Shown: positions 36,412-64,000, counted from the first letter of the stretch. The stretch is 64,000 nucleotides of DNA from an uncultured delta proteobacterium (GCA_963761255.1 CAVXGH010000006.1:263790-327789); one strand, 5' to 3'. The notes: generated by a model from the sequence alone, not told the origin. Program-made: numbers and translations.

Positions 36412-38649
36412 CTATTTTTTCACCTTCGGCGCCTTGCCGGTTACCGAGGCCGCGACGCTCACGACGCCGACGCTCGAGTTGCTGGTGATCTGCACGCTCC
36501 CGGTGTTGGTTCCTACGGTCGAGGGCGTCATCGTGAATGCCAGGGTGCATTTGCCCTTGGGCGCGAGACTCATCCCGGCGGTGCAGGTGCCGCCCGACCG
36601 CGCAAGGTTCGAGCTAATGGCGAAGCTCTTCAGCGTGATCGAAGCGCTACCCTTCGCCGCTCCATTTTCCACCGTGAGTGTCTTCGGTTTGCTCGCCGTG
36701 CCGGTCGTGGTGGTTGCGAATTTCAAGGCGCCGGGACTGGCTTCCAGTTTCGAAGCTACCGGCGGCATCGGCGCGGCGAGGTACGCGGTGACGAATGCGT
36801 CGGCATCGATCGAGCCCCATCCGGTCACCAGGTCATAGCCGGGGCCGGCGGAATATCCCTGCACGGTGACCGCGCCATGCCCGCTGACATTGCTGATGTA
36901 GGTGTTGTCGCCGGAAGTGATGTCATGGAATCCATGCGCCGCCTGCCCCGCGACACCCAATTCCCAGACGATCGGGTTGAGACTGCCGAGCCGCCGGCCG
37001 CCATTTGCAGTTTGCAGAAGGCGCGAATAACCCGCCCACAACGGCGCGGCGAGACTGGTGCCGACGACTAAATAATTGGACTGGGTAGGTTTAGCGACGC
37101 CGGCCACATCGGTATCGGCGAAAATAACGATGTCGGGTTTGCCCGCCAGCGAGGCCACGTCGGGAAGGTCGCGAGAGTTATCATTGCTGGTACCCGCCAC
37201 TCCCAGTTGCCATGAAGGCCTGGTAAAAACGCTGCTGATGCCGCCTCCACTGACCTCGTTCTTGCCGGCCAGGGCGGCGTTACCGTTTTGATTGTTCCAT
37301 GATGACTCGGTCGAATAGCCGGTCGAGAACCCGTTGGTGTAAGTCGGCGAGTCTACTTCAGTGCCGCCGACCGAAGTGGTCAGCGGATTGGCGCCGAGTT
37401 CGTTTACATTGGGCGAACCGGTCTGGCAGGTATCGGCGCCATGATCGCCCGCGGACACGAACACCGACTGCCCCTGGGCTTGTGCCCTGGAAAACAGATT
37501 GCCCAGGGTAGTCGTAAAAAAGGCGTTGGACGCACCGCAGACGTGGTAGCTGAAATTCAACGCGCCGCATTTGTTCTCGGTGGTCATCGCCGTGATCGCG
37601 TCGGTCAGATTCTGTGCGAACGAGAGTTTGTCGGGGTTGGTGACATACAGCGTTATCGGCGCGCCCGGCGCGATCAGATGCGCGGCCTCGATATCGAGAT
37701 AGGCCTCGATGTCGGCGCCGTTGCCGATAACTCCTGGATTAGTCTCCCGGGAAAGATCGATGGTGAGGGCGGGGTTGGTCGCGAAGGAGGTGTACTGCGA
37801 GAAAAGCGCGAAGTAGTCCTTAAGAATGGTGGCCTGCGACGGCTCGGTAAAAATGTTGGTGTTGGCGAAGATCCCGATACAGTCCCCGCCGTTGGCGCCG
37901 GTGTTGCCGCCCTCCAGCAGCGGGGTTTCGTCATAGAAGGTGTAAAAATCCGGCGGACCGAAAGTAAGGCCCGAGCCACCGATTGTCTCGAGGCTGAAAT
38001 CGGGGCCCGACCCCGCGGCGTGGCCATCGCGCTTCATGACCGGGAGTTTGCGAAGACTCGGTTTCAGCCTGGCAGTCGCATCGTCGGGCTCGAGGCTGCC
38101 CAGGTTCTGCATCCCGAGGATATCGCCGATTAAGCCGGCGAACTGCGCGGGGATTTCAGGTTCCATCAGATTGGCGAATTTGCCGTTGCCAAAGTCCTCG
38201 AGCTGAGTGTTGAACGTCCGCTCGACCGATACGGTATCGGTACTGAAGCGAAGGTAGCCGTCCTCGCGCGAGCCGCCGAGGATCTGGAAGCCACTCGCAG
38301 TCAGCCAATCCTGCACCGCCGAAAAATCGCTCGCGCTCACTCCGAACCGGCGCGTGAAGTCATCCGAAGTGATCCATTGATGGTATTGCGATGAAGCCGG
38401 ATCGATTTGCGCCGCGATTAGCTGATCGAGCTGCGCTCGGTTGCGGATCGCGAATCGAATGTCGAGGGTCAGGGTCTTGGCGGGATCGAGATGCCTAAGG
38501 ACGGCCATCGTCGCCGCGGCGGGCGGGACCGTCCCGCGCATCTTCACCACCTGCGCCATCGCCACGGACGGGATGACAGACATCAGGATGAAAATCGCGA
38601 ACGATTGAGCTCGACGTTTGGCAGACTCAAACGGAACGACCGGCGAATG
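36412..38649 (-). CDS. secreted S53-family serine peptidase (sedolisin/kumamolisin-like) with pro-peptide activation domain and C-terminal Ig-like domain
   Basis: Signal peptide, pro-kumamolisin activation domain, catalytic Ser motif VVGTSLAAPLWAGY; C-terminal β-sandwich tail shared with other proteins in the cluster. Confidence 0.8.
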   Translation of the reverse strand, partial: HSPVVPFESAKRRAQSFAIFILMSVIPSVAMAQVVKMRGTVPPAAATMAVLRHLDPAKTLTLDIRFAIRNRAQLDQLIAAQIDPASSQYHQWITSDDFTRRFGVSASDFSAVQDWLTASGFQILGGSREDGYLRFSTDTVSVERTFNTQLEDFGNGKFANLMEPEIPAQFAGLIGDILGMQNLGSLEPDDATARLKPSLRKLPVMKRDGHAAGSGPDFSLETIGGSGLTFGPPDFYTFYDETPLLEGGNTGANGGDCIGIFANTNIFTEPSQATILKDYFALFSQYTSFATNPALTIDLSRETNPGVIGNGADIEAYLDIEAAHLIAPGAPITLYVTNPDKLSFAQNLTDAITAMTTENKCGALNFSYHVCGASNAFFTTTLGNLFSRAQAQGQSVFVSAGDHGADTCQTGSPNVNELGANPLTTSVGGTEVDSPTYTNGFSTGYSTESSWNNQNGNAALAGKNEVSGGGISSVFTRPSWQLGVAGTSNDNSRDLPDVASLAGKPDIVIFADTDVAGVAKPTQSNYLVVGTSLAAPLWAGYSRLLQTANGGRRLGSLNPIVWELGVAGQAAHGFHDITSGDNTYISNVSGHGAVTVQGYSAGPGYDLVTGWGSIDADAFVTAYLAAPMPPVASKLEASPGALKFATTTTGTASKPKTLTVENGAAKGSASITLKSFAISSNLARSGGTCTAGMSLAPKGKCTLAFTMTPSTVGTNTGSVQITSNSSVGVVSVAASVTGKAPKVKK

Positions 38650-38995
38650 CTGGTCCATGCGGGTTCCCCCCAAAAGCACCGGTATAAGAAATCGTGCCCG
38701 GAGCTGAATTGACCGCGCCCGAAATCGCGATTCATTCAAGCACATGAGATAAAGGCTTCGCCAGCGAGACTCTCGGTGGTCAGATTCAACTGCCCCGCGG
38801 AGATCCGAGGGCGTCACCGTTCCAATCTCACTCACAGATTCGAATCGGCGATCCGCGGTCGCGAGGAGAGGAATTCCAGTCTGAAGCATGGTCGCGACGA
38901 GTTCTATGGGAATAAGGTGCGGCCGCGGGCGCGCAGGCATCTGCCGCAGGCCCAACCCCTTCCCTTTAGAGAAGCGCCGCAGCAAGATTGGGATC

Positions 38996-39730
38996 TTGTT
39001 TGAAAAATTCACGGTAATTCCTTCGATCGACCTCAAGAATGGCGAGGTTGTGCGGTTGCTGCGCGGCGCGATGGATAAGGCCACCGTTTATGGATCCGAT
39101 CCGGCGGCGGTAGCGCGCGATTTCGAAGGTCAGGGCGCCGAAATTATCCATGTCGTTGACCTCGACGGCGCCATCGCGGGCGAGCCGAAGAACCTCGAGG
39201 CGATCCGCGCGATTCGTGCCGCCGTGCGATGCGAACTCGATGTGAGCGGCGGGCTGCGCACGATGGCTTCGATTCGCGAGATCATCAAGGCCGGCGCGAC
39301 GCGAGTTTCGATCGGCTCAGCCGCCTTCCTCAATCCGCAGTTGCTCATCGATGCGTGCGCGGAGTTGCCGGGAAAGATTTTCGGCTCCCTCGATGCGCGC
39401 GACGGCAAGCTCGCCATCAAGGGATGGGTCGAGACCAGCGCGCTGACGGTTGCCGATGCGGCGCGGCGGTTTCGAGAAGCAGGTGTCGCCGCCGCGATTG
39501 TCACCGACATCTCGCGCGATGGGACCGAGGCCGGCCTCAACATTGAGACTATTCGCGCGATTGCGCGCAGCGTCGCCCTGCCGATGATCGCGTCAGGCGG
39601 CGTTGCGAGGCTCGAGGACATTTCCAACTTGAAGGCGCTCTTCTCCGCGGGTGTCGTGGGCGTCATCACCGGCCGCGCGTTGTACGAAGGCCGCTTCACC
39701 GTGGCGCAAGCGATCGCCGCGTCGCGCTAG
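38996..39730 (+). CDS. hisA: 1-(5-phosphoribosyl)-5-[(5-phosphoribosylamino)methylideneamino]imidazole-4-carboxamide isomerase
   Basis: …VIPSIDLKNGEVVRL…VVDLDGA…; probable TTG start. Confidence 0.8.
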   Translation: MFEKFTVIPSIDLKNGEVVRLLRGAMDKATVYGSDPAAVARDFEGQGAEIIHVVDLDGAIAGEPKNLEAIRAIRAAVRCELDVSGGLRTMASIREIIKAGATRVSIGSAAFLNPQLLIDACAELPGKIFGSLDARDGKLAIKGWVETSALTVADAARRFREAGVAAAIVTDISRDGTEAGLNIETIRAIARSVALPMIASGGVARLEDISNLKALFSAGVVGVITGRALYEGRFTVAQAIAASR

Positions 39731-40320
39731 GGATTTAATTCGCGCAGGATAAAGTCCACCCGTTGCGCAACCGGCACCTTAGGAATCAGCACCAGTTCAT
39801 AGCCAAGGCGCTGATAGGTCGGCAGCAGCGTTTGGTACTCGGCCAGCGCGTCTGCATAAGTATGGGTGCGTTCGGCGTCGTTGCGGAACATTTGCGGCCA
39901 CGGCGGTGTGATGAAGACTTTCCGGTTGTATCTGAAAATCTCCACCGCTTTCCTGAGGTGAGCTGGAGCGCCGCCGCTCAGCTGTTCGAGGCCATTGAAA
40001 TTGTCGACCATCGATCGATCGAAGAAAACGTGCGACGTGGTGGCGGCCGCGCTGATCATGTTGTGCATCGATCGCGAAACGCAGAGCTCGGCGAATTTGT
40101 ACACGTCCTTGCCCGGGATGCCGTCGCCGCCAATAGCATTTTGTTCCTTGACGATTTGCCGGCCTGGCTCCGCGAATGCGCGATAACCGCGGGTGGACAA
40201 CTCATGCAGCAGCGATGACTTGCCGGCGCCGGAGCATCCGGAAATTACTACATAGTAATCGCGCGCCGCCGTGACGTGCGCGGGCGAATAGTCATCTTCG
40301 AGCATCCTGAAACCACTCAT
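39727..40320 (-). CDS. P-loop NTPase (AAA_28 / small nucleoside-nucleotide kinase-like)
   Basis: Walker A ISGCSGAGKSSLL; no other recognisable motifs. Confidence 0.5.
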   Translation of the reverse strand: MSGFRMLEDDYSPAHVTAARDYYVVISGCSGAGKSSLLHELSTRGYRAFAEPGRQIVKEQNAIGGDGIPGKDVYKFAELCVSRSMHNMISAAATTSHVFFDRSMVDNFNGLEQLSGGAPAHLRKAVEIFRYNRKVFITPPWPQMFRNDAERTHTYADALAEYQTLLPTYQRLGYELVLIPKVPVAQRVDFILRELNP

Positions 40321-40342
40321 ACATTTCTCCCGCTGACCCGCC

Positions 40343-42433
40343 TTACCACGCCGCCCATGGCACTCGCGAAAAAATGTCCGGGTACCTGAGAGCTCCGGGG
40401 ATGGCAAACAGGGCTGCGACGACGACGAGAATCCCGCAAGCTATCAGAGCCGGCCGTCTGACTCTGCTCGTGTCTTCGATGGTCGCGAGCGCGAACCACG
40501 GCAGGAAAGGGACCCAATAGCGGGGACCATAGCAGAGTCCCGGCCCGGTGCCGGAGCAACTAAGAAGTACCAGGAACAAAACGAGGGGGAGCGCCATTTG
40601 ACGGAGCAGCTTTGCCTCGGGAAAATCGGAGCGGAACGCGCGTGCGATGGCGATGAAGGCGATAATTGCCCACGGAACAAAGTATAGCAGTGCGTGGCCA
40701 GGCTCGAAGAAAGTGTCATAGATCGATTTGAGGCTGGCGCCGCGCAGCCAACTCGAGTTTCCGGAAATCACCAGGGTTTTTGCGAGCCAGTAGTTGAAGA
40801 CCAGCACTGGCGCGCCGCACAGTGCCATCACGATGCCCAGCTTGATCGCGTTTTGCCGGCGTCCCGCGACGAACTCGTTGATCATGAATCCGATTCCGAC
40901 CACTGCAAGTGGCGGCTTGAGAATCGCTGCGAAGGCGACGCCGAGGCCTGCCACTATTGGTCTATCTGTGGTCAGCGCCCAAAGCGCCACTATCAGGCCT
41001 AGACCGATGGTGGCCTCGGGAAAGAACGATCGCGAATAGGCCAGCCACGAACTCGCTCCCATGAGAAGGGCAACCGCCAGCAGCGCTTTGATGCGGCTCA
41101 TTCCCACCCCGCGTCCTGCCACGTAGGTCATTAGAGCTCCGAGCCACGAAATAATTGCCAGCACGACAGCGGTGTAGGACTCGGCATCGCCGAAGGCGGG
41201 ACGAAAAGGAGCGACCGCGAGCGCCATTAACATGGAAAATTCCGGTGGATGAGCCGAGACCTCGTAGACGTCGCCGGAGGGAACAAACTCCGGGTTGCAG
41301 GCACTTACGGAGTCAGGAGAATCGATTGAAGCGAAAGCATGATGGCCGGTACGCTGGTTGACTATTAGCGTATGACGATCGAGCGGTACATTCCGGAATC
41401 GAACTCCGGCGTCCACTCCGCCGGCAGCAACCCGATCGTAGTCGTCCTGCAACTCGAAGTCGTGGTCGAACAACAGGCTATTTATCAGCAGGATATAATG
41501 CGGCTCGTCACTGCGCGCGGCTCGCGGCGTGACGAGGGAAAATCCCGCGCCGGGGGTCCATTCGATTCGCGTCAGCACAAGGATTCCCCCCAGCAGCAGG
41601 GCAAACAGAATCGCAACTCCGCGCGCGGATAAGGAGTTTGTCGAAACCTTCCCGGCCGCCATGGAAGTGGTCGGGCCATCGGCGAACCGATAGTAGATGA
41701 GTCCGAGCACGCTCAGTACGAGAATCAACCAGACAGTCGTCCAGTTGATCGATGCGGCGGAAAAATGTGCGGCCTTCGCGAATTCGAATTGCCGCGCGCC
41801 CTCTGGAGGGGACGCAATCCGCGTGAAGGTGAGGTTGCGGCACGAGACCCTGGTGTGGAGATTCGGCGAGGTGAGACCACATTGAACCTCGACCGGGTCG
41901 TCGCCGAAGATGCGAACGTAAATATCGTGACGTGCCCAGTCCTCGCCACGCCAAAACGCCGAGGCGGAGTCGTGTCTTTGTTTGACGGCGAGGAATGCGC
42001 CGCCCATCCGTGAGCCCTGGGTGCGCAACTCGGCGCTAAGATCGTACCAGCCCGGCGCCACCGACACGGTTTGGGTCCATGCCGCGTCATCCCCCGGCGC
42101 ATTGACGATGCTCAATTCGCCCGGCGCATCTTTTGAGCGTACCCAATGGAAGCTGTCGCAGCCGGAGCGACGCGATGGATACCAGTCGTTGGGCATCGCG
42201 ATACCGCCGCTCAGGTCAGAGTTGAGGAGGAGGTTGGTTGCCGCGGAGGCCGAAGGGATAAAGACCATCAGCATCAGCAAAATCGCCGTCCCGACGCCTG
42301 GGAATCGGCTGACGATGCTTCGATCCCGGCGCGGCAGCCATTTGCAGCTAACAGATGCGACGATATCCCCCATTATGTTCATTTCGCACGTCTTCGCCCA
42401 TTCGAACCTATCTATGATGACTGCTGATGACAA
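40343..42433 (-). CDS. GT-C-fold membrane glycosyltransferase-like protein (PMT/ArnT-like; DE-type loop-1 motif) with N-terminal extracytoplasmic β-sandwich domain; paralogue of 59795..61177
   Basis: Multi-TM C-terminal half, …RIEWTPGAGF…SDEPHYILLINSLLFDHD…; ~55% identity to 59795..61177 over ~400 aa. Confidence 0.55.
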   Translation of the reverse strand: MSSAVIIDRFEWAKTCEMNIMGDIVASVSCKWLPRRDRSIVSRFPGVGTAILLMLMVFIPSASAATNLLLNSDLSGGIAMPNDWYPSRRSGCDSFHWVRSKDAPGELSIVNAPGDDAAWTQTVSVAPGWYDLSAELRTQGSRMGGAFLAVKQRHDSASAFWRGEDWARHDIYVRIFGDDPVEVQCGLTSPNLHTRVSCRNLTFTRIASPPEGARQFEFAKAAHFSAASINWTTVWLILVLSVLGLIYYRFADGPTTSMAAGKVSTNSLSARGVAILFALLLGGILVLTRIEWTPGAGFSLVTPRAARSDEPHYILLINSLLFDHDFELQDDYDRVAAGGVDAGVRFRNVPLDRHTLIVNQRTGHHAFASIDSPDSVSACNPEFVPSGDVYEVSAHPPEFSMLMALAVAPFRPAFGDAESYTAVVLAIISWLGALMTYVAGRGVGMSRIKALLAVALLMGASSWLAYSRSFFPEATIGLGLIVALWALTTDRPIVAGLGVAFAAILKPPLAVVGIGFMINEFVAGRRQNAIKLGIVMALCGAPVLVFNYWLAKTLVISGNSSWLRGASLKSIYDTFFEPGHALLYFVPWAIIAFIAIARAFRSDFPEAKLLRQMALPLVLFLVLLSCSGTGPGLCYGPRYWVPFLPWFALATIEDTSRVRRPALIACGILVVVAALFAIPGALRYPDIFSRVPWAAW

Positions 42434-42550: not shown

Positions 42551-43318
42551 ATGAAGGTTAAAGCACTTGTGGGGGCGTTTGGAGCTTTCCTGATCGCGCT
42601 CGGATTGAGTTCGGCCGCGCGGGCAATGTCGCCGGACGTACCCGGACAGGTTTTGTACACCTACTACGAGACCACCGAAAACTTTACGTTCTGCGACAGC
42701 ACGACCGCCGATACTGACGGGTGCGATGTTGGCGGCAATGGGGACAATATCATTCGCCTAATCAATCCCAATGGTGCGGCGAACGCCAATCTTGCGGGCG
42801 CGCAGACCAATACGATTTGCGCCATGATCTATGTCTTCGATGATGACGAGGAAATGGGCGAGTGCTGCGGTTGCCCCTTGTCTTCCGCGCAACTGGCGAC
42901 TTTCTCAGTCGAGCACAACCTGACCTCCAACTGGGGTCTCTCGGGTGGGGCTGAAAGCGGGGATCATGCCAATGGTGCTATCGCGATCATATCCGCGGAT
43001 CAGAACGCGAGTATTTCGTTTCAGCCCGGTTTGAGCAACGGACAAGGGTGCTCAAACAGCCAGAGCGGCGCCTGCAATTTAGGTTGCGATCCCACCAACA
43101 ATCCGGGATATCCAGTCGCGGTCGCGGGCGGGGATAATCTCCTCGGCAGCATCACCCACAACCAGGTAATTTTCCCGATCGATGGCCAAATCACCGAAAC
43201 CCAGTTGTTCGATGATTGCCACGGCGAGGACATCAATCTCGTCTATCTGCAGACTCAATGCGGCGCGTTGGTCGGCAACGGCACGCATGGCGGAATCTGC
43301 AACTGCCCGGTTGAATAG
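42551..43318 (+). CDS. secreted Cys-rich hypothetical protein
   Basis: Signal peptide MKVKALVGAFGAFLIALGLSSAARA; 12 Cys incl. ECCGCP, CNLGCDP; no family recognised. Confidence 0.5.
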   Translation: MKVKALVGAFGAFLIALGLSSAARAMSPDVPGQVLYTYYETTENFTFCDSTTADTDGCDVGGNGDNIIRLINPNGAANANLAGAQTNTICAMIYVFDDDEEMGECCGCPLSSAQLATFSVEHNLTSNWGLSGGAESGDHANGAIAIISADQNASISFQPGLSNGQGCSNSQSGACNLGCDPTNNPGYPVAVAGGDNLLGSITHNQVIFPIDGQITETQLFDDCHGEDINLVYLQTQCGALVGNGTHGGICNCPVE

Positions 43319-43388: not shown

Positions 43389-45262
43389 GTGCGCCCAGCA
43401 TGGCGCGTGACTTGTGAGGTGAAAGTCCTCTGTGCGAGCAGGCCGCGTCGAGCACTAGCGAAGCGCAAGGGCGTCATCGTGAGATGGGGTCTGGAGGAAG
43501 CGCGGAGCAAAGCCGCGAGCCGACGAACAGGAACCGGATACAAGGGCGAGGTGGCTCAGGGCGAGCGGGCAAATGACCGCGAAGCTCTATCGGCCAAGGA
43601 GTCATCGCGTAGATCCGGCGGTTTGTGCGGCGAAGGTCACGGCGTCTTACCTGGGGAGATCTCGCTTCACGCCTGAAAGGGCGACGCGCAGGAGCGCGGA
43701 GCGAGAAGTCAGCCGAGGCCGTAGTAGTCAGCGGGACACGGCAGAGGCCTCGATGTCCGCGCTGATGAAGGGCCGAACGGAAGGGAGAGCGAAGCCGCTG
43801 TGAGTCCGAAAGACGCCAGGCGCCAGAAGCCCGAGCAATTGGGGCTGCCGCTGGAAGGTAGAGGTGAAGCCTCGAGGGTCCAGCGCAGCGGCGAAGCGTC
43901 GACGATGGCGAACAGAGAGGAGCGCTCGGGAAGCGACCGCCTGATGGAAGCGGTGGTTGCGCGCGGCAATGTCAGGGCGGCGTTGACGCGGGTACGTGAG
44001 AACCGGGGCAGCCCCGGAGTCGAGGGGATGACGGTGGAAGAACTGCCGCAGCACCTGATGGAGCACTGGCAGGAAGTCCGCGAGCAACTACTCGCCGGAA
44101 CTTACCAGCCCAAAGCGGTGCTGCGACGGGAAATCCCGAAAGCGAGCGGCGGAATGCGAGAGCTCGGCATTCCGTGCGTGCTCGACCGGCTGATCCAACA
44201 GGCGATACTGCAGGTGCTGCAGCCGCGATTCGACCCCAGCTTCTCGGAGCACAGTTACGGCTTCCGGCCGGGGCGCAGCGCGCACGACGCGGTGTTAGCG
44301 GCGCAGCGCTATGTGCAGGAAGGACGCCACTGGGTGGTGGACGTGGACCTGGAGAAGTTCTTCGACCGGGTCAACCACGACGTGCTGATGGGAAGACTAG
44401 CGCGGCGAATCGATGACTCGCGGCTCCTGCGGCTAATCCGCCGCTATCTCAACGCCGGCCTGATGGCCGACGGAGTGGTGATGGAACGCACTGAGGGAAC
44501 GCCGCAGGGAGGACCACTGTCGCCACTGCTGGCGAATCTCCTGCTTGACGAAGTGGACAAGGAGCTGGAGAAACGCGGGCACACGTTCGTGCGCTATGCC
44601 GACGACTGCAACGTCTATGTGCGGTCGCGGCGCGCGGGAGAACGAGTGATGGCGGCGCTGGAGCGAATGTACGCCAAGCTCCGACTTAAAGTGAATCGCG
44701 AGAAGAGCAAGGTGGACCTCGCGCACAAGCGCAGCCTCTTGAGCTACAGCTTCTGGTACGCCAGGGGCGGCGCGGTGGCATGCCGGGTCGCACCCAAGGC
44801 GCTGCGCGCGCTCAAGCAGCGCGTGCGGCGGATAACCAGACGCAGCGGCGGACGGAGCATGAGAAGCGTAGTCGCGGAGCTGAGGAAGTATCTGCCGGGA
44901 TGGAAGCAATACTTCCAACTAGCGGACACGCCGAAGACCTTCGCTGACTACGACAAATGGCTCCGCCACCGGTTGCGAGCGCTGCAACTCAAACAGTGGA
45001 AGCGCGGCTCGAAGATCTATACCGCGATGCGCCGCCTCGGACTGCCGGACGCGATTGCGGCGCAAGCCGCACGGGTTAACCGACGCTGGTGGCATCGGGC
45101 CGCCATGTCGGTCCACGCCGGACTCACTGCCCGCTACTACGACCGACTTGGAGTACCCAGACTTGCCGATTAACCTCAACCTTCCGAACCGCCGGATGCG
45201 GACCCGCATGTCCGGTGGTGTGGCAGGGGAGTAGCGCTGCGGCGCTACCCCCTATGCCGATT
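43389..45262 (+). mobile_element. group II intron, bacterial class C-like (ORF in domain IV), inserted immediately downstream of an intrinsic terminator
   Basis: 5' end GUGCGCC (GUGYG consensus) right after the terminator T-run. ORF-containing DIV. Domain V-like hairpin CCGCCGGAUGCGG…CCGCAUGUCCGGUGG (CGC catalytic triad variant typical of class C). Domain VI hairpin with bulged A (CCCCCUAUGCC) ~8 nt before the 3' end. Confidence 0.7.
43905..45173 (+). CDS. group II intron-encoded reverse transcriptase/maturase
   Basis: RT motifs incl. FVRYADDCNVYV (YADD), maturase/X domain (…RKYLPGWKQYF…). Confidence 0.85.
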   Translation: MANREERSGSDRLMEAVVARGNVRAALTRVRENRGSPGVEGMTVEELPQHLMEHWQEVREQLLAGTYQPKAVLRREIPKASGGMRELGIPCVLDRLIQQAILQVLQPRFDPSFSEHSYGFRPGRSAHDAVLAAQRYVQEGRHWVVDVDLEKFFDRVNHDVLMGRLARRIDDSRLLRLIRRYLNAGLMADGVVMERTEGTPQGGPLSPLLANLLLDEVDKELEKRGHTFVRYADDCNVYVRSRRAGERVMAALERMYAKLRLKVNREKSKVDLAHKRSLLSYSFWYARGGAVACRVAPKALRALKQRVRRITRRSGGRSMRSVVAELRKYLPGWKQYFQLADTPKTFADYDKWLRHRLRALQLKQWKRGSKIYTAMRRLGLPDAIAAQAARVNRRWWHRAAMSVHAGLTARYYDRLGVPRLAD

Positions 45263-47957: not shown

Positions 47958-48500
47958 TATTCATGCCTGATGGTAGGGTAGCTTATGGTGAGCAGCGATG
48001 CGAGGTTTTGGGGTTGAGGTGCGCGAGGCTGAAACAGTATGCCCGGCAGCGGGTTTTTTCGAAGTGACAAGTCTGCGGTGGTGCTACGGTACGCGATTTG
48101 GCCAGCCCTCGCGAAAGGACCAATAGCTATCGGCAAGCCACGAATCGTGGCCTGCCGGAATTTCGAGCGGCGGAGAGAAACCCGGTAAGCTAACGGGCTG
48201 GTTTGGATCCGCGGATGTTCTTCAGGATGAAGGCGATATCGCGCGCGCTGGACAGATTACCGAACAACGACACGGTCTTTAGCAACTCGAGCTCTTCTTC
48301 GGTGACGCCATGCCGGGCGAGCATTTCCGCGTCGGTGCCGAACCGCTCGAGCAGATCCTTTGCTCCCGTTGCGCGCGGAGCATTCGCTCTGGCCATACAG
48401 TCCCCCTAGACGACCTGTTGACCAGCAAATAGTAGGTTTATGCTACAAGAGAGTCAAGCGCGAAGCGCGACTAATTTCCGCAGCTCCAGGCGCACGTTAG

Positions 48501-52900: not shown

Positions 52901-53228
52901 CCTGCGTCTCGGCTTGGGTCCGGCCAAATCGCGCGTTGAACTGCGTGGGCGTCAACCAGCGATGATACATCGGAGACGCGGGATTTTGCAGATCGGCCTG
53001 GAGTTTCGCCAGGGCCTCGCGATTGCGAAGCCGAAAGGCCACATGGACTGTTAGTGAGCGTTGGCCAGATGCGCGCGACGACAGAGCCGCAGCCTCCAGC
53101 GGACGATTGTCGCCAAGCGCAACCGTCTGTGCCAGCGCCACACCCGCCGCGAAGGTACCCATCACCGCCAAAAACGAAATGGCAATTACGAGGTGCAGTG
53201 CGCCGCGGCTAACTCCAAACTTTTCCAT
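49948..53228 (-). CDS. secreted S53-family serine peptidase (sedolisin-like), multidomain: pro-domain, catalytic domain, uncharacterised ~200-aa domain, (TP)n linker, two Ig-like C-terminal domains; single-base frame change at ~50335 (C-run)
   Basis: Pro-kumamolisin domain (…YHRWLTPTQFNARFG…), Ser motif IGGTSIATPMWAG. Tail in another frame (…SDTAAAIINTNDATRPSIGIALTG…VVTLKGSGK*) is homologous to the C-terminus of the 1213-aa neighbour. Confidence 0.8.
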
Positions 53229-56300: not shown

Positions 56301-56977
56301 ATCCCCGACCCGTACAAGGAGTCGATGGATCCGTTGCCTTCACCGGTGCCCACATAAATCGTGCTGGGGCTAGTCGTGGTATCGAGGGCAATTGCGCCGA
56401 CGGCCTGGGTTGGTTGGTTGTCGAATACCGAAACGAAGCTTCCACCATTGTTGGTGCTGACCCACAACCCGCCCGATGCAGCGCCTACCACGATCAGCCC
56501 AGTCGAATCGACCGCGATGGCGGTCAGACGTCCCGTCATCGCGACGTTGCTTCCGATCGCCGAGCCGGTGAAATTAGCCTTCTCCGACATCGGAAGAGGA
56601 CCCAAAGCCTTCCAAGATCCTGAAATCCCGGCAGCGGAACTCGTCGCGCCGATCGCGCTCGAAGTGGCGCCCGAAGTCGCCGGCGGCCGCGAGGGCAGCG
56701 CTTGTTTCATCGCGCGCATGTGTGACACCGCACGCGGAATTGCCTGCTTCGGAATCCCAAACTGCAGTCCGTGGCGCGAGGACTGAAAGATCTCTCGACG
56801 TACCGCCTCAGGCAGGTGGGTTCCCTCGCTATGTTCGCTAATCTCGGCGCCTTCCGCGGAGGCGGGGAAATCGCGCCCGCAGGAAGTAAGGAAAAGACCC
56901 AGCGCCAACGCCAGGAGCAGGGTCCTCGGCGCGCCGCGTAGAAATTGTCCGGAACTCATTGACTTAATCTCTGGCAA
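53336..56977 (-). CDS. large secreted lipoprotein with BNR/Asp-box β-propeller repeats, (TP)n linker and two C-terminal Ig-like domains
   Basis: Lipobox (…LFLTSCG…); ≥9 Asp-box motifs (STNNGGSF, STNLGQTW, STDGGTSW, SSDGGTTW…); 70-aa Thr/Pro/Ala linker; C-terminal domains homologous to S53 peptidase tails. Confidence 0.7.
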   Translation of the reverse strand: MPEIKSMSSGQFLRGAPRTLLLALALGLFLTSCGRDFPASAEGAEISEHSEGTHLPEAVRREIFQSSRHGLQFGIPKQAIPRAVSHMRAMKQALPSRPPATSGATSSAIGATSSAAGISGSWKALGPLPMSEKANFTGSAIGSNVAMTGRLTAIAVDSTGLIVVGAASGGLWVSTNNGGSFVSVFDNQPTQAVGAIALDTTTSPSTIYVGTGEGNGSIDSLYGSGMFKSTNLGQTWTSVGPTGTFDRASFTSLAIDTQTTPGKPRIFAGTTSGFSGSRADAGIFESDSSKAGLWRSTDGGTSWSQYPESTFGGCDLIGGQNTNAPCPADDVVIDPLQPLNVYVAIDSDTVYYSNDGGGTFHPANFLGAKLIQGRQSLAVGPKVGAPLGPTNPPGGVVYAMIGASDGLEYSAMFASFDAGATWNAGTVLAPTIPTVTSNGTTIDGTNPNNFSQSFYDQAMLVSPTDPSTVFFGGVGLYKSAGSYGHLWTFLAANGGVHSDQHALVWDPVNNQVLVANDGGLYMFDPTQSAPSFVSLNQQINAGQIQGIGPHPTDSTKLIAGFQDNGTQLYSNSVANWFTPDSETGDGGFEFYDVQDPNYVYHDFSLDEIDHAQISASSDGGQDWCSAPDQTNPHCAVFGQQWTTNLQTLLNSVGDEGPVFYPPLAVDPNVAHRVWFAAHSVYVSTDGMAHWAQQTDQDLTSDGTFEGAMCANQSCAIEDLEFGPNDVLNSIYPAWSLAMSDLDGTVAFAINNTKQSNVQLDANHADGAFWVDVTGGVDTAMKKTSPLGALSTQATSIAPDPHNLNVAYLGLSGFTSDTQVGHIYKTVNFGQTWTLADGNSISGGAIVANTNGLPDVPVLKVLVDSTDDSGSCGGNPCSNSVFAATDVGVFHSSDGGTTWQSFTTGMPTVPVYDLEQNSVGVTFAGTHGRGAFQLALATVTPTPTSTPTPTTTATATASPTASATTTATPTPTATRTATPTPTTTATPTTTATTTPTPTTTPTPTPVPTGAKIVVPAMVNFGSVAIGQTTARKFTIKNSGKGNLLGTVQVLIDPPSRASVFSVNQSSFNIPPGTSITETGTFAPDMPSDTALALISSDDATRPTVGVVLNGTGLVGKLTAPAAFTMTSQVGITLPATLTIKNTGKGPLSGDWAPVSIPPYQVGSGHFDLQPGATQSIQINFTPTLKGSAPSVVLPIGVNAPGGKTTVITLKGVGK

Positions 56978-57492
56978 GGCGCTGCCGCTTCAACTTGATG
57001 GTTCGCAAAACCGGAATTGACAATTGTTGACGAACGAATTCCACGCCCCCTATGGTTGCCGATTCTCACTTCAAACGGCCTTTGCCGACCGAACGAAAAA
57101 TCGCAACCAACGAGCTAGACGGCGCGAAAATCGTTGCGCCACCGAGGTTGTGAAAAGAGCGCTCCCCTTTTGAGTCACTTACGCTTCTTTGAACCTAAAA
57201 TTTTATCAGAATGGTCATCAACAGTGCAATCAATTTTTCCGAAGGCGCAAAAAAACGCGATTGGGAGAGCGCGGTTTAGATTCGAACTCGCAGCGAACGA
57301 TGAGGAATCGCATCGATACATTGCGCATCTGAGAGCGTCGTCTCGAAGTTAAACCGATTCTGTTCAATTCTGGCGTAATCGCCGCGCCTGAGCATGCGAG
57401 AAGGCTTCGATGCTTGATCACGAGTGCAAAGATAGGCTTTGAATGTAGCCTCGCAAAAGTGAATTTTGAGTAAGCGAAGGGAAGGAAAGACG

Positions 57493-59820
57493 ATGGAGAA
57501 GAAGCGGCTTCGATTCTCCGATTGGCTATATTCTCCTTCCTTCGTTCCAATCGCGTTAGCGGCGATGGTCGTTGCGATGTTCGCGAGCATCGTTCTCACG
57601 GGCGGCGACCAAGTTCTTTCGCATTCGGGCACTGACCTTTCCGCCGAGTTCGTTTACTGGCGCCAATTCGGCTTTGATCAATTGAGGGCGGGCCACCTCG
57701 CATTATGGAATCCACATGTCTTCAGTGGGGTTCCGTTTATGGGCGGATTTCAAGCGGCCCTGTTCTATCCGCCCGACTGGATTTACCTGATTCTTCCGCT
57801 TCGTACTGCCATCAACTGCGAAATCGTACTGCATGTCTTTCTGATCGGCCTGTTCACCTGGGCATGGCTTCGTCGTTACGATCTGCATCCGTTGGCCCTG
57901 CTTCTTGGTTGCACGGTGACCATGTTCGGGGGGCCGTTCTTCCTTCATATCTATCCAGGGCACCTCGCGACTCTGGACTCGATGGCGTGGATCCCGCTGA
58001 TCCTGCTTACCGTCGATGAACTGGTCGAGAGGCCGAACGCCAAATGGGTATTGGTCGGGATTTTTGCATTCTCGATGCAGTTTCTGGCCGGCCATCCGCA
58101 AACGCTCTTCAACACGATGGTGACGTGTTTGATTTATGGGTCCCTGCGCATGGTCAAGGCTTCATACCGGAAGCAAACGATCATCGCGCTCGCGGTCATC
58201 GGAGTCGGTGCGATCGCGATCACGGCGGTTCAGCTTTGGTCGGGACTGAATGCGTCCGGTGAGGGAACGAGGCAAGGGGGAGTGCCCTTCACCTTCGCGG
58301 CGATGTTTTCCTTTCCGCCGGAAAATCTGCTCACCGTGTTGGTTCCGGGTTTGTTCGGTGACATGACGGGCTTTACTTATTGGGGCCGTTGTTACTTGTG
58401 GGAAATGTCCGCGTTCTTCGGACTCACCGGTCTGGTGATGGCGATCTATGGAAGCATGGTGAGCTTTCGCGGACGCAAACTCTGTCTTTTGATGATAGGC
58501 GTCCCGATCGTTCTCGCACTGGGAAATCACACGCCATTGTTCGCATTGCTGTATCGCTTCGCTCCCGGCTTCGACCATTTTCGTTCGCATTCGAAATTTC
58601 TGGTTCAGGCAACTCCATTCCTGGCGATTTTGACCGGGCACGGGATGAATCGGGTCTTGCAGTCGTCGCGTGGCACGAAAACCGGCGCGCTAGCGGTCCT
58701 GTCAGTCAGCCTGGTTTTGGCGATCGCCGGATTCGCTCTGTGGCATTCGGGTTTTCCGGCGATCAAGGATGCATGGGAGCACGCGATGGATGCGGTCGCT
58801 GCTACCGGCGAGTCGTATCTTCCGTCGCGTAATTACGCGGCTCCTGATTTTGTTGCGAACGCCGCATCTTTCGCCGGATATCAATGCCTCACCGCAGCCG
58901 GCGTTCTTCTCGCGATAGCTCTGCTGCTCTACCTTCGATCATTTAGCCGAGTTGCGGCGATTGCTTTAGCCATTGTGGGAATAGGAGAAATGTTTTGGTT
59001 TGCGAACTCTTCGCTGGCGACGTTTTCCCTGGCGGAGACAGTTCCTACTTCAGTGCGCGACTTTCTAAGCGCGCATCCAGGCGACTATCGAATCCTGGAG
59101 CTGCCGGATCCCAACGGTGCGATCGCGATTGGTGCGGAAGATATCTGGGGCTACGACCCCATGGTGCTGGGACGTTACTCTCAATTCGTCACTTATTCTC
59201 AAGGTGGCGATCCCGCAGATGCCGACATGTACGTGAACTTTTCGAGGATAACGCGCATGCTTGGGCTGTTGCGATTGAAATACGTCTTCCGCAACCAGGT
59301 CATGGTTTCTGAAACGGAAAGATCGCTTCCGCACTTTCTTCTACTCGGCGGATGGGAACGGGAAACTGATCGAAACAATATCCTTAGCTCGCTCGAATCT
59401 TCAGTCTTTGATCCGGAAAGGACTGCCATCCTCGAAGCCGATCCTGAGCCGGCTCCGGTCTCTGGTGAGACATCTCCGGGAACGGTGCAACTCGTTGACA
59501 GCACTACAGACTCGATGACTATATCGGCGCATCTCACGCGACCCAGCCTGCTACTCATTACCGACTGCTACAGTCGCTACTGGCGCGCGGTGGCCGAGCC
59601 GGGCAGCGTTCAGAAAAGCTACCAGGTAGTTCCGGCCGATTATACTTTGCTGGCGGTGCCGCTTTCCGCGGGCGAGCATCGTATGCGCATCGAATATGCT
59701 CCTCCCGGATACACGATAGGGCGATGGATTTCACTGGTAGGCCTGCTTCTATACATATTGGCGGGTGTGTTTTTCTTGCGACGCTCGAAGTTAAATGCCG
59801 CCGCCAGACCAAATGAATAG
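57493..59820 (+). CDS. YfhO-family GT-C-type membrane glycosyltransferase-like protein
   Basis: Multi-TM N-terminal ~500 aa with YfhO-like …WNPHVFSGVPFMGGFQAALFYPPDW…; C-terminal extracytoplasmic β-rich domain. Confidence 0.6.
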   Translation: MEKKRLRFSDWLYSPSFVPIALAAMVVAMFASIVLTGGDQVLSHSGTDLSAEFVYWRQFGFDQLRAGHLALWNPHVFSGVPFMGGFQAALFYPPDWIYLILPLRTAINCEIVLHVFLIGLFTWAWLRRYDLHPLALLLGCTVTMFGGPFFLHIYPGHLATLDSMAWIPLILLTVDELVERPNAKWVLVGIFAFSMQFLAGHPQTLFNTMVTCLIYGSLRMVKASYRKQTIIALAVIGVGAIAITAVQLWSGLNASGEGTRQGGVPFTFAAMFSFPPENLLTVLVPGLFGDMTGFTYWGRCYLWEMSAFFGLTGLVMAIYGSMVSFRGRKLCLLMIGVPIVLALGNHTPLFALLYRFAPGFDHFRSHSKFLVQATPFLAILTGHGMNRVLQSSRGTKTGALAVLSVSLVLAIAGFALWHSGFPAIKDAWEHAMDAVAATGESYLPSRNYAAPDFVANAASFAGYQCLTAAGVLLAIALLLYLRSFSRVAAIALAIVGIGEMFWFANSSLATFSLAETVPTSVRDFLSAHPGDYRILELPDPNGAIAIGAEDIWGYDPMVLGRYSQFVTYSQGGDPADADMYVNFSRITRMLGLLRLKYVFRNQVMVSETERSLPHFLLLGGWERETDRNNILSSLESSVFDPERTAILEADPEPAPVSGETSPGTVQLVDSTTDSMTISAHLTRPSLLLITDCYSRYWRAVAEPGSVQKSYQVVPADYTLLAVPLSAGEHRMRIEYAPPGYTIGRWISLVGLLLYILAGVFFLRRSKLNAAARPNE

Positions 59821-61177
59821 CGGAAACGCCTCATCATCGAGGTTATGGCCGACCTCGCTTAAACAGCTATCGAATTACGCCATACCTGCATTCTTCGTGG
59901 TTCTTCTCGTGGGATTTTGGGGCGTTACCCGGATCGAATGGGTTCCGGGTACGGGATTCGAAGTTGTTTCACCGCGGGTGATTTCCGGCGATGAGCCCCA
60001 TCACCTGCTGGTGCTCAACAGCATCCTTTTCGATCACGACCTGCAGATTCAAGACGACTACATACGCGCGCAAACCGGACTGGACGCGGGAGGCGTACCG
60101 CTGCCGGATCATCACACCATCATCGTAAATCGGCGAACGGGTCAGCACGGTACCTGGTTTGAGCATCACGGCGAGGATGGTTTGACGCCTGGTCCCGATG
60201 TGTATGAGGTGTCCTCACATCCACTGGCGTATCCGGTATTTCTCGCCGCCCTCATTGCGCCCTTTCGGCCGAAGATGGATGACGTTCAACGCGATGCGAG
60301 CCTGGTGATGGTGTTGGTGTCGTGGCTTGGCGCGATTTTCACGTTTCTGCTTGCTCGAAGAGTCGGATTGGGAGCTGGTTACGCACTGCTCGCGACCGCC
60401 CTCCTCGCGCTGGCTAGCCCATGGCTCGCATACAACCGATCATTTTTTGTCGAACCGGTCATCGGCCTGACAGCGGTGATTTCATTGTACGCACTGGAGG
60501 GGGAGCGCCCGATCCTCGCAGGTGCGGCCGCCGCGGCCGCGGCGATTTTCAAGCCGCCGTTGGCGGTGATCGGCGCCGGCTTCGCGATCGATCGCATGCA
60601 GCGAAAGCGTTGGCACGATGTGATCGTGTTGCTCGCGGTGCTGGGTGTCTCTGGCTTTGTTCTGGTGTGTTTCAATTATTGGCTGGCACGCACGCTGGTC
60701 ATCTCCGGTAACGTCAGCGGTCCGTGGCCGTTTGGTTCGAACACCGCGCATGACTTCCGTCGTCTCGGAGACACTTTTATCGGAAGCGATCACGGGCTGT
60801 TCATCTTCGCGCCGTGGACGATTTTTGCGATCTTTCCGATCGGCAAGGCGTTCTGCTCCTTGGATGCCAGCCCGCGGTTCCTTCGCGAGATGTCGCTGCC
60901 GCTGGCGATGCAGCTGGTGCTCCTGACGGCTTCCAATTTTGACGTCGGCGCCTGCTACGGGCCGCGTTACTGGATCCCGTTTTTACCGTGGATGGCGGTC
61001 GCCGCAGCTTACACCGTAAAGTCCGCGGGCTGGACCTGGAAAAGCATCTTCGTCGCGCTTGCGGCGGTTAGTCTCGCGATCTCGATCGCCGGCGCCCTCC
61101 GATATCCGCAAATGTTTTCGCTCTCGCCATGGTTCCTCTGGCATACCGAGGCGACCAGCGCGAATCTGCTCTTCTGA
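59795..61177 (+). CDS. GT-C-fold membrane glycosyltransferase-like protein (PMT/ArnT-like), shorter paralogue of 40343..42433
   Basis: …RIEWVPGTGFEVVSPRVISGDEPHHLLVLNSILFDHD… and conserved TM core …CYGPRYWIPFLPW…. Confidence 0.55.
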   Translation: MPPPDQMNSGNASSSRLWPTSLKQLSNYAIPAFFVVLLVGFWGVTRIEWVPGTGFEVVSPRVISGDEPHHLLVLNSILFDHDLQIQDDYIRAQTGLDAGGVPLPDHHTIIVNRRTGQHGTWFEHHGEDGLTPGPDVYEVSSHPLAYPVFLAALIAPFRPKMDDVQRDASLVMVLVSWLGAIFTFLLARRVGLGAGYALLATALLALASPWLAYNRSFFVEPVIGLTAVISLYALEGERPILAGAAAAAAAIFKPPLAVIGAGFAIDRMQRKRWHDVIVLLAVLGVSGFVLVCFNYWLARTLVISGNVSGPWPFGSNTAHDFRRLGDTFIGSDHGLFIFAPWTIFAIFPIGKAFCSLDASPRFLREMSLPLAMQLVLLTASNFDVGACYGPRYWIPFLPWMAVAAAYTVKSAGWTWKSIFVALAAVSLAISIAGALRYPQMFSLSPWFLWHTEATSANLLF

Positions 61178-61588
61178 ATATGATACGCGACCACGCGTCG
61201 AATTCTTCGGATGATTCATCGTGACGCCGATTGTCGCACTTGTGATGATGCCTCGCGTCCCACCTCGGTACAGCGACCAAAGCGATGCTCACAGGACAAA
61301 ATCGACGCACCTGCGATTATGCGCGACATTACAGAACGTCTCGTGACGGGGTAGTCTTCTCCATTGCCTGTCAACCGGTGAGATGTGCAGTCTGAGCAAA
61401 AGAAAGCACACCGCAGTTTCTCTAAAGAAACAAGTTGTACAATTTTTCTACAAATGTATGATGTTTCCTCGCTGCCCCTCGCGGAACGCTTCTTGCTTTG
61501 ACTCGCCATAGCGTAAATAAATTAGACGGTCCGCAGACGGACCACGCTTCTCGAAGAGTTTTTTCCGCTCTTCGCGACTGGGGGGAAC

Positions 61589-64000
61589 ATGAAGCGAGCC
61601 CTATCGACGCTTGGGCTAGCCGAAACGCATGGATCGGTCTCGAGGCCGATCGGATTTGATGGGTCGGCACAGCCCGCATCATTGAGCACTAACGTCGCGC
61701 GCAACCATAACGCGGAACCTCGTTTCCGTGCAGTTCCTTTTTTTCCTCGCTTCGTCGCTCTGCTGATCGCCGTCATGTTCGTAGGCATCGGCACGAGTGC
61801 CGCCAATGCGCAAACACTCAGCCTGGTAACCTCGCAACAAGCCCTGCAATCGAACGACAACGTTTCATGGGCACAGCTCAATTCCAACAACGGCGCAACC
61901 ACGCTGCCCGCGAGCTTCAATGTCACTTCCGCAAACGCGAATCCAATCACCGTCAGCCTGACCGGCGCCAATAGTGTCCCCGCGGTAAGCTGTCCCGCAT
62001 CAACATGCAGTTGGATGGGCTCCGAGATGCCAGCCGGTGATACTCTGGTTTGGACCTCGGATGGAAACAACGGAGGCAACGGTCCTCTCACTGCAACTTT
62101 CGGACATCCACAGACCGCCGTCGGCGCCTACATCCAGGCCGATGGGCCGGGGCAGTTCGTAGCGCAAATTCAGGCCTTCAACAGCGCGGGCCTGTCGTTG
62201 GGGACCCTTTCCGAAACCAGCGATGCGACCGGCGATGCCATGTTCATCGGCGTTCAGGATCACGCGGGCGCGCAGATTTCCACGATCGTTTTCAGTCTGG
62301 TCAGTGCGCAGGGACCGGTGTCGGACTTCGCCCTCGATAGCTTGTTCCTCAATGGCCCGGTGTTGCCTACGCCGACCGCCACCGTAACTCCTACTATCAC
62401 GCCGACCAGAACTCCGACGGCGACCCCGACACCCAATGTTACACCCACGCCAACTCAGGCGGGGACACCAACTCCGACTCCCGCGCCGAGTCAGAGTGTG
62501 ACGCCGACGGTCACCGTGACACCCACGAAGACCGCCACGGCGACCTTAACTCCGACGCGCACGCCTACTGCGACTTTCACCGCGACGCCCACCTTAACGG
62601 CGACGCTCACCGTGACGGCCACACCGGTGCCGACGATTCCGCCACCCACCTTGACGCCAACCGCCACCTTGACGCCCACCGTCACCCCGACTCCGACGGT
62701 GACGGCCACGCCGACTCCGACCGCGACGCCTACGACAAGCATCGCTTTCGTCGGCGCGGGGCCGCTGGCCGACTACAGCACCGCGGTGACGACAGTAACA
62801 CTCGGTCTGCCGGCCGGCGTGCAAGCGGGCGATACGCTGCTCGCGCAGATTATCGTCTATGACGGTACTGGCTCGGATGTTCCCACCGCGCCCAGCGGAT
62901 GGACGAGCATTCGCCACGACAGCATCAGCAATGGCCTCCTGGCGACCTCATGGCTCTTTTACAAGACCGCGGGCACCAACGAGCCTTCTTCTTACGGATG
63001 GAACATCAGCTCGAACTGGGCCGCTGGCGCCATGGGCGCCTGGCGAGGTGCGTCGGTCGCCCCGATCGATAGTGCTTCGGGAACGACAGCCTCGGGCGCG
63101 CTGACGATATCTGCTTCGGCGCCCTCGCTCACGCCGAGCGCCGACGATGAGTTGCAAGTGTACTTCTATGGATCGCAGTCTCACGTTGGCCCGACCATAA
63201 CTCCCTCGAGCAGCCTCAACCAGCGCTTCGATGCGAGCTCGTCGAAGGAAGGCTTCGCACTCGCCTTCGCAGACCTCGCGGCGCCTTTCGCAAACAATGC
63301 TTCGCTCGCGTATCCCTCGGTGACGAGCATCTCTGGTACTGCGGTGGTGACGGCCCAGGCGGTTTTGTTGACCGCGACAGCGCTAACTCAAAGTCCGACG
63401 CCCACAATTCCGGCGACGAAAACCGCGACCTCAACTCCCATCCCGACGACCACGCCGACGTTTACCTCGATTCCGACCAACACCGCCACGGTAGTTCACA
63501 CGCCGACCATCACCGCCACGCTCACCTCCACGGCGGTTTCAACTCCCACGCCGACACCGGTCGCGAATATCACCTTCGTCGCGACGGGGCCGCTCGCGGA
63601 CTACAGCACCGCGGTAACTACGGTTACCGTAGGGTTGCCTTCCGGCTTGCAGGCAGGCGACACCATGGTCGCTCAGCTCCTCATCTATGATGGCAGCGCC
63701 TCCGACGTCCCGACCGCGCCGAGCGGCTGGAACCTCATTCGTCACGACTCGGTAAACAACGGCAACAAAGCGACCTCATGGCTCTATTACAAGACCGCCG
63801 GTGCCAATGAGCCCGCGTCCTACGGATGGAACATCAGCTCGAACTGGGCAGCCGGTGTCATGGCGGCATGGCGCGGCGCGTCGGTTGCTCCGATCGATAG
63901 CGATGCGGGCGCGATCGCATCCACCGGCAATCCGGTTTCGGTCGCCGCTCCCTCGCTGACTCCATCTACCAACAATGAGCTGCAGATCTACTTCTACGGA
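61589..64000 (+). CDS. secreted repeat protein (3'-partial at window end): N-terminal β-domain, long Thr/Pro linker, then ≥2 copies of an uncharacterised ~200-aa domain separated by TP linkers. Not in the supplied ORF track because no stop is reached
   Basis: Manual translation from ATG 61589 is open to 64000. Signal-like …[20 protein letters not shown]. Domain copies at ~62738-63350 and ~63560-64000 (…[14 protein letters not shown](L/V)GLP(A/S)G(V/L)QAGDT…ATSWL(F/Y)YKTAG(T/A)NEP(S/A)[13 protein letters not shown]…[12 protein letters not shown]…). Confidence 0.6.

Follow-up and report, generated by a model that had tools for sequence, protein, structure and literature searches.

We analysed a 64,000-nt stretch of the genome of an uncultured delta proteobacterium (GCA_963761255.1, CAVXGH010000006.1:263790-327789; hereafter the window) and found in it a conserved gene block in which genes for three GT-C glycosyltransferases of two families lie among genes for secreted proteins with Thr/Pro-rich (T/P) linkers. 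Homologs assigned the window to Candidatus Binataceae, an uncultured soil lineage whose envelope is presumably diderm, as assumed from its deltaproteobacteria-like placement. Together with a glycosyltransferase family 2 (GT2) enzyme and a methyltransferase encoded past the window end, the block very probably specifies a lipid-linked periplasmic glycosylation system. The full model, in which Thr residues of the linkers serve as acceptor, is more tentative, and we hold it with somewhat less than even confidence. A first-pass annotation of the same sequence had proposed a dedicated O-glycosylation module for these proteins over a span of ~28 kb (36.4–64 kb). The enzymes, their GT2 partner and the synteny support this proposal in part, whereas "dedicated" was not established, as the association is confined to one clade and propeller proteins with such linkers are encoded elsewhere. 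The span likewise contains a conserved block but also genes for HisA, an AAA_28 ATPase and a hybrid histidine kinase, as well as a group II intron. We rejected it as a single cluster, given that the intron is lineage-specific and that the conserved block includes neither sedolisin 1 nor hisA nor AAA_28. At its core is the conserved Binataceae block, from ~40.3 to 64 kb and onward.

Two of the three enzymes, A and B, are paralogs that align over the full length of B with 44% identity (E 1e-109). Each has the DE(P)H(Y/H) loop motif noted in the first pass, as DEPHY in paralog A (aa 309-313, nt 41495-41509) and as DEPHH in paralog B (aa 66-70, nt 59990-60004). Across 35 homologs, D and P of this DEP motif were invariant and E nearly so (D66, E67 and P68 in B; D309 in A). 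The motif directly follows the first transmembrane helix (TM1), and D66 and D309 would lie in the first periplasmic loop, a sidedness deduced from the positively charged N-termini. In GT-C enzymes, the catalytic acid is located directly after TM1, in the first extracytoplasmic loop. Both proteins are polytopic with a conserved transmembrane core. The first-pass annotation had proposed structure prediction as the check on whether the membrane proteins were GT-C enzymes at all, and for both DEP paralogs the predictions were confidently of the GT-C fold. Paralog A starts with a signal or anchor, followed by a periplasmic beta-sandwich resembling a carbohydrate-binding module (CBM; aa ~105-217), one transmembrane helix and the GT-C core (aa ~267-696).

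The two paralogs belong to a family of their own, which we call DEP. Neither had a Pfam match at E ≤ 0.01, PMT and PMT_2 included, and none of the 35 homologs matched PMT at E ≤ 1; the sole NCBIfam match, to a "cell surface glycopolymer formation" family, was weak. Membership of PMT (GT39) was rejected, there being no PF02366 match, no MIR domain and no beta-trefoil in the models. The same applied to ArnT (GT83; PMT_2, PF13231), for which we found no family model match and no C-terminal soluble domain. The earlier description of the paralogs as "PMT/ArnT-like" is therefore correct for the fold seen in the structure models but not as family membership. The best structural match was ALG12, then ALG9, PIG-M and PimE, at sequence identities of 8–16%. 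A hidden Markov model search of 1.84 billion representatives (50% identity clusters) recovered 182 DEP clusters at E ≤ 1e-30, a number that rose to 527 at E ≤ 1e-10. When ten divergent members were compared with Pfam, no match rose above threshold and only traces of GT22, GT87 and DUF6427 were seen. Among species-representative genomes, almost all members were found in Binataceae (at least three or four copies in each genome), with a few in Myxococcales, Acidobacteriota and Alphaproteobacteria. DEP is thus a new, small GT-C family with an optional N-terminal CBM-like domain, and none of the curated libraries has a model for it.

The third enzyme, annotated earlier as YfhO-like, scored 26.9 bits against Pfam YfhO (cut-off 28.5), over its C-terminal 70 residues only. 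Its homologs, of which 37 of 41 (40–74% identity) matched PF09586 (best E 2.6e-14), place it in the YfhO family as a divergent member, in line with the earlier assignment. Its C-terminal NCBIfam matches were to PgfM2 and PgfM1, PgfM2 at 35 bits versus a cut-off of 1500 bits. D57 (nt 57634), in the first periplasmic loop, was invariant. An operon is implied by the 26-nt overlap between the YfhO and paralog B genes. At least 486 YfhO homologs were detected, spread over several phyla and with several paralogs per genome. Profile–profile comparison of YfhO with DEP gave no signal (probability 0.8%), so a common GT-C nature is not demonstrable by sequence, and sequence and profile searches of both families against PDB chains returned nothing relevant.

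Donor-side genes were looked for on both sides of the window end. Inside the window, neither Pfam analysis of 20 upstream open reading frames (ORFs; 6.8–35.7 kb) nor tblastn over the whole window, the only search that covered the first ~6.8 kb, detected a donor GT2, a methyltransferase or a GtrA-type flippase. A contig from the same species (L010; 96.5% identical over 16 kb) reaches 5.4 kb past the window end. There, the multi-repeat gene is followed by genes for an S-adenosylmethionine (SAM)-dependent methyltransferase, a GT2 ending in a GT2_TM_C segment and another Cys-rich protein. The GT2 gene, ~1.7–3 kb beyond the window end, was present in L010, L002, L011 and L014; it was intact in L011 (16135-17367) and L014 and frameshifted in L010. 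The best NCBIfam matches of the intact L011 protein, none of which reached its equivalog cut-off, were to the polyprenyl-phosphate sugar synthases AglJ, Dol-P-hexose transferase, PpgS, ArnC and PgfS, and its C-terminus contains four hydrophobic segments. These features suggest that the GT2 plausibly makes polyprenyl-phosphate hexose and would be the donor enzyme required by a GT-C pathway.

Conservation of the block was assessed in 51 genomic loci encoding DEP members (numbered with the prefix L) and in metagenome-contig contexts, which were searched for the block proteins with tblastn and scored for T/P runs. The full set (BNR propeller, sedolisin, immunoglobulin (Ig)-like domain, YfhO, T/P linkers, methyltransferase, GT2 and Cys-rich protein) was found only at the orthologous locus of related genomes: L001, L002 (= L013), L006, L010, L011, L012 and L014, with GT-C identities of 54–99%. 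The BNR gene, divergent from the YfhO–paralog B pair, and then the multi-repeat, methyltransferase and GT2 genes kept their order in L001, L002, L006, L011, L012 and L014. This order, the divergent BNR–YfhO pairing included, was retained down to 54% GT-C identity, and the paralog A side of the block was kept in L029 and L041. Outside the orthologous loci, at least 11 of ~40 DEP loci had a GT2 gene directly adjacent (L016, L018, L026, L030, L034, L036, L038-L040, L042 and L051). Three of these had the complete methyltransferase–GT2–GT-C trio (L016 7854-11341, L026 10055-13296 and L051 7859-11373), which is a recurrent Binataceae module. In the window's clade, the gene of the multi-repeat linker protein lies between paralog B and the methyltransferase–GT2 pair. 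The recurrence of the trio without linker proteins nearby suggests that these three genes formed the ancestral module and that the multi-repeat gene was added to it in the window's clade.

T/P-rich runs occurred in three ORFs only (sedolisin 2, the BNR lipoprotein and the multi-repeat protein), all within 50.5–63.6 kb, and none was detected in the other ~50 kb of the window. The first-pass annotation had ascribed Thr/Pro(/Ala) linkers to all four secreted proteins; three have them, but no T/P run was found in sedolisin 1. With ~9 such runs in ~0.95 Mb of non-orthologous loci, the block is enriched ~20-fold. Block linkers measured 66–135 residues and were conserved in composition. All BNR orthologs kept a T/P/A linker of ~30–110 residues. 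The BNR propeller family itself is multi-copy (3397 matches), and among the best 120 of these 3397 homologs, 83 had an S/T/P linker after the propeller.

The four secreted proteins were largely as previously described. Two are indeed sedolisin-type peptidases with the features that define S53 (Pro-kumamolisin activation domain, Ser-Glu-Asp triad and oxyanion Asp). Pro-kuma_activ was above the Pfam cut-off in both (E 4e-22 in sedolisin 1, E 9e-24 in sedolisin 2). Alignment of sedolisin 2 with human TPP1 (E 3.5e-14) showed the catalytic E and D, the oxyanion D and the S all kept, and the catalytic motifs of sedolisin 1 (DIEAYLDIE, SAGDHG and GTSLAAP) were readable in the sequence. Sedolisin 2 consists of a signal peptide, a prodomain, a catalytic domain, a ~215-aa domain, a T/P/A linker (aa 821-886, nt 50571-50768) and two Ig-like domains (Pfam HYDIN/ASH). 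A frameshift at ~50330-50345 cut its listed ORF to 986 aa; the second Ig domain carries on in another frame to 49948, and orthologs measure 1095–1140 aa. The adjacent lactonase-like gene, with orthologs in L029, L041 and L002, is also frameshifted (near 49390), giving two overlapping ORFs in different frames. Because the same-species contig L010 is full of such breaks, both frameshifts are likely long-read assembly errors; real pseudogenes are the alternative.

The 1213-aa Asp-box beta-propeller lipoprotein was confirmed by its lipobox (LTSC, read directly from the sequence) and by a Pfam Sortilin-Vps10 match (33.4 bits versus a 33-bit cut-off). BNR matches were sub-threshold, and homologs carry PF15902. 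Its T/P/A linker (69 residues, aa 938-1006, nt 53960-54166) precedes a C-terminal pair of Ig-like domains (Pfam HYDIN_VesB Ig; NCBIfam choice_anch_D). A role as a GH74-like glycosidase was considered, but the similarity was weak and sub-threshold (F510_1955, 48 bits versus a 175-bit cut-off), and no such activity was assigned. The multi-repeat secreted protein was also recovered, running off the window end, and is full length in L010, L011, L012 and L014. It has a signal peptide and an N-terminal domain; its long T/P linkers are encoded at nt 62354-62752 and 63392-63562, and the ~215-aa domain is present three times. Pfam matched no family on an intact ortholog, hence no Pfam-detectable Ig-like domain. 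The Ig-like C-termini claimed for all four proteins were accordingly found in three, as choice-of-anchor D/HYDIN-type domains (in sedolisin 1, choice_anch_D at 43.3 bits), and not in the multi-repeat protein. One copy of this domain (consensus start I(S/A)FVG.GPL.D.STAVTT...; ~215 aa) lies in sedolisin 2 (aa ~600-815, 51.4–50.8 kb), and the three of the multi-repeat protein lie at 62.75–64.0 kb. The domain was also seen in a 1417-aa sedolisin of L002.

We infer from these data a donor sugar, a flipping step, an acceptor and a division of labour among the three GT-Cs, as follows. At the cytoplasmic face, the GT2 with its four C-terminal hydrophobic helices would load hexose from a nucleotide sugar onto polyprenyl phosphate, and the adjoining SAM-dependent methyltransferase may modify that hexose. 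A putative flippase would then turn the lipid-linked sugar over. At the periplasmic face, the YfhO enzyme and the two DEP paralogs would take it as donor, with the loop-1 Asp as the probable catalytic residue. The likeliest acceptor would be linker Thr residues of exported proteins, among them the products of the block itself. The YfhO enzyme may start the glycan, as PgtC2 and PgfM1 do, and the small ALG-like GT-Cs, one of them CBM-bearing, may extend or decorate it. Linkers glycosylated in this way could resist both co-encoded and environmental proteases.

Several observations weigh against this reading of the acceptor. The GT2 gene lies outside the window itself, and the flanks of L010 and L011 yielded no recognisable flippase. 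Co-occurrence across related genomes, put forward earlier as a check, gave a divided answer: the block order is conserved in Binataceae, but among DEP loci the linker proteins occur only at the orthologous locus, and the ~40 other DEP loci have no T/P-rich ORF within 10 kb. Family-wide, the partner of the DEP GT-C is GT2, not linker proteins. Given that GT-C and linker-protein genes are associated only in a single syntenic block of a single clade, their co-localisation amounts to roughly one lineage-level evolutionary event. T/P linkers are moreover a general feature of Binataceae exported proteins, which makes "dedicated" unlikely even if glycosylation occurs. Two linker-bearing BNR paralogs are encoded on megabase-scale contigs with no GT-C or YfhO gene within 10 kb; therefore, either any protein glycosylation would be of a general and not a dedicated kind, or something else accounts for the co-localisation. 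On the structural side, the closest matches of the DEP enzymes (ALG12, ALG9, PIG-M and PimE) act on glycan or lipid acceptors, and paralog B has no soluble acceptor-binding domain. A YfhO start on Thr followed by ALG-like, CBM-bearing extension accommodates both sets of evidence in one model. Its widest form would be a general Binataceae O-glycosylation of exported Thr/Pro linkers, started by YfhO and extended by CBM-fused DEP GT-Cs with a (possibly methylated) hexose; the CBM-like domain would read the growing glycan. In that form, we consider it rather unlikely.

The alternative that survives best is that the GT-Cs, the GT2 and the methyltransferase decorate an envelope glycan or glycolipid (lipopolysaccharide (LPS) core, O-antigen, lipid A or exopolysaccharide) with a perhaps methylated hexose, in the manner of ArnC/ArnT, GtrB/Gtr and CsbB/YfhO. 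The secreted proteins would then not be substrates, and the neighbours would be tied by shared envelope biology, such as a BNR propeller binding or trimming the glycan, or by inherited gene order. We regard this as quite possible, if short of probable. It fits the family-wide partnership with GT2, with or without the methyltransferase, and the weak similarity of the BNR protein to BNR glycosyl hydrolases; the CBM-like periplasmic domain on paralog A and most DEP members also suggests a carbohydrate ligand. Distant YfhO homologs in other phyla lie amid polysaccharide/LPS-type genes (GT2, epimerase, UDP-glucose dehydrogenase, DUF2079, GT9 and PMT_2), and the founding YfhO enzymes of Bacillus and Listeria glycosylate lipoteichoic and wall teichoic acids (PMC5836110). 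Nevertheless, proteins are by now also among the established acceptors of YfhO enzymes (PMC12041528), and the ~30-kb block has no polysaccharide assembly genes (no Wzx/Wzy, priming transferase or nucleotide-sugar genes). A linker-protein gene, moreover, lies between paralog B and the methyltransferase–GT2 pair, and the BNR gene remains the divergent partner of the YfhO operon down to 54% GT-C identity.

A second alternative assigns different acceptors to the YfhO and DEP enzymes (protein for one and glycan for the other, or the reverse), so that the block would be a collection of envelope and secretome genes and not one pathway. That profile–profile comparison found no relationship between the two families agrees with this, as do their different phyletic spread (several phyla for YfhO, mostly Binataceae for DEP), the presence of several paralogs of both per genome and the restriction of their adjacency to this block. 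We nonetheless think it quite unlikely. Translational coupling usually indicates a single pathway; here, the genes of the YfhO enzyme and paralog B overlap and their adjacency is kept in the orthologous loci, and the single GT2 of the block could supply both families alike. Finally, it is very unlikely that there is no functional link, i.e., that modular secreted-protein genes were duplicated and shuffled locally near unrelated membrane proteins, some decaying to pseudogenes: the shared modules (Ig, T/P linker and ~215-aa domain), on account of which the clustering of the secreted proteins is not independent evidence, the two frameshifted genes and the lineage-specific insertions (sedolisin 1, intron and kinase) fit such shuffling, but gene order was kept over several species-level genomes, the frameshifts are plausibly assembly errors, and the peptidase catalytic residues and conserved GT-C motifs are intact.

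The gene map of the 36.4–64 kb span and hisB, based on the ORF listing and on Pfam and NCBIfam family scans of the window, is given in Table 1.

Table 1. Features of the 36.4–64 kb span and the preceding hisB gene, in window coordinates.
Feature	Position (nt)	Strand	Remarks
hisB	35685-36398	+	
Sedolisin 1	36412-38658	-	748 aa from likely start; Pro-kuma_activ, one C-terminal Ig-like domain
hisA	~39.0-39.73 kb	+	
AAA_28 ATPase	39727-40407	-	
GT-C paralog A (membrane protein A)	40343-42433	-	696 aa
Cys-rich secreted protein	42551-43318	+	255 aa
Group II intron + reverse transcriptase (RT)/maturase	43473-45173	+	Rfam
Hybrid sensor histidine kinase, PAS-HisKA-HATPase-2xREC	45297-47957	-	Pfam
68-aa ORF	48190-48396	-	
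Lactonase-like beta-propeller, probable lipoprotein, frameshifted	48501-49699	-	Pfam Lactonase E 1e-9
Sedolisin 2 (S53 peptidase), frameshifted	49948-53228	-	
BNR/Sortilin-type beta-propeller lipoprotein	53336-56977	-	1213 aa
Divergent YfhO-family GT-C	57466-59820	+	784 aa
GT-C paralog B (membrane protein B, short form)	59795-61177	+	460 aa
Multi-repeat secreted protein	61589-64000, continues past window end	+	~1100 aa in total

Sedolisin 1 falls within the coordinates of the proposed module yet is outside the conserved block. It is flanked by hisB and hisA, on the strand opposite to the his genes, and in L041, a relative with 86–95% identity, the hisA–hisB gap measures ~2.2 kb and holds no sedolisin 1 ortholog. 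The antisense gene thus stands where an uninterrupted his operon (hisD-hisB ... hisA) would be expected; hisH was not seen at this place in the window. The Cys-rich protein has orthologs in the same position in L029 and L041, and a second copy past the GT2 was found in L010, L011, L012, L014 and L006. Its family motif is DDEEMGECCGCP, the second copy in L010 lies at 20731-21339 (-), and copies flank the block in several genomes. The histidine kinase was present in the same position in L041 (86%) and absent in L029, and whether it belongs to the block is uncertain. Between the Cys-rich gene and the kinase gene stands the group II intron (Rfam D1-D4 at 43473-43773, RT/maturase ORF at 43800-45173), a recent insertion, since L029 and L041 do not have it there. 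In L010, L029 and L041, the 68-aa ORF (76–87% identity) occupies the same position, with the lactonase-like gene on one side and the kinase or Cys-rich gene on the other. Pfam and NCBIfam gave no match for this ORF, the Cys-rich protein, the ~215-aa domain or the N-terminal domain of the multi-repeat protein. Elsewhere in the window, upstream of prfA, two adjoining ORFs (233 aa and 642 aa; 25791-28417, -) had no Pfam match at E ≤ 1e-4.

If the linkers are indeed the acceptor, the block would be the first evidence of the streptococcal GT2 and YfhO route to disordered Ser/Thr regions in an uncultured, presumably diderm soil lineage. A function would also be assigned to the DEP family, which has no curated-library coverage, making it a new GT-C family with a protein-glycan acceptor. 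Whatever the acceptor, two findings matter for understanding the secretome and cell surface of this widespread soil group: the recurrent trio, and the long T/P linkers, candidates for modification, of the many propellers and peptidases that Binataceae secrete. We found no literature on glycosylation in this uncultured phylum.

Among known GT-C enzymes, the small eukaryotic and mycobacterial mannosyltransferases ALG12 and ALG9 (GT22), PIG-M and PimE (GT87) resemble the DEP proteins in size (~400–500 aa), in having no large soluble domain and in the weak sub-threshold Pfam signals of GT22 and GT87. The DEP proteins differ from them in extra loop-1 beta-hairpins, in the optional N-terminal CBM-like domain and in having no family model at threshold. 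The three-component envelope systems (CsbB/GtcA/YfhO, GtrA/GtrB/Gtr and ArnC/ArnT) differ from the Binataceae block, for which no GtrA/GtcA-type flippase gene and no envelope-glycan genes nearby were found. The block has instead three GT-Cs of two families, with linker-protein genes among the enzyme genes. The acceptors of PMTs often lie in Pro/Thr-rich linkers, and PMTs have an acidic "DE" motif in loop 1, which the loop-1 DEP motif of Binataceae resembles. In the Ppm1/Pmt (GT39) system of Actinobacteria, a GT2 makes polyprenyl-phosphate mannose, from which a GT-C then mannosylates Ser/Thr residues in secreted proteins (PMC5882110), a two-step logic of GT2 and then GT-C that the block would share.

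The closest parallels are in streptococci, where GtrB with PgtC2, and PgfS with PgfM1, glycosylate Ser/Thr-rich disordered regions; PgtC2 and PgfM1 belong to the YfhO family, and the genes of the pgf cluster include those of the Thr-rich adhesins that it modifies (PMC12041528, PMC5856776). This gives the earlier idea of linker O-glycosylation a precedent. Like Pgf (PgfS-PgfM1-PgfE-PgfM2) and GtrB/PgtC2, the Binataceae system combines a putative GT2 synthase with a YfhO GT-C that has an Asp in an extracytoplasmic loop, here presumed catalytic. The linker proteins inside the block would parallel the pgf-encoded substrates. Unlike these Firmicute systems, the block belongs to a presumably diderm host, its YfhO enzyme is very divergent and is joined by two extra GT-Cs from an unrelated, unclassified family, and its linkers are T/P/A-rich instead of poly-Ser/Thr; unlike Pgf, it has a methyltransferase in place of the epimerase. 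The logic of a lipid-linked pathway of GT2 and GT-C is thus already known, and what is new in Binataceae is the DEP GT-C family, its pairing with YfhO and a methyltransferase, and its setting beside T/P-linker proteins.

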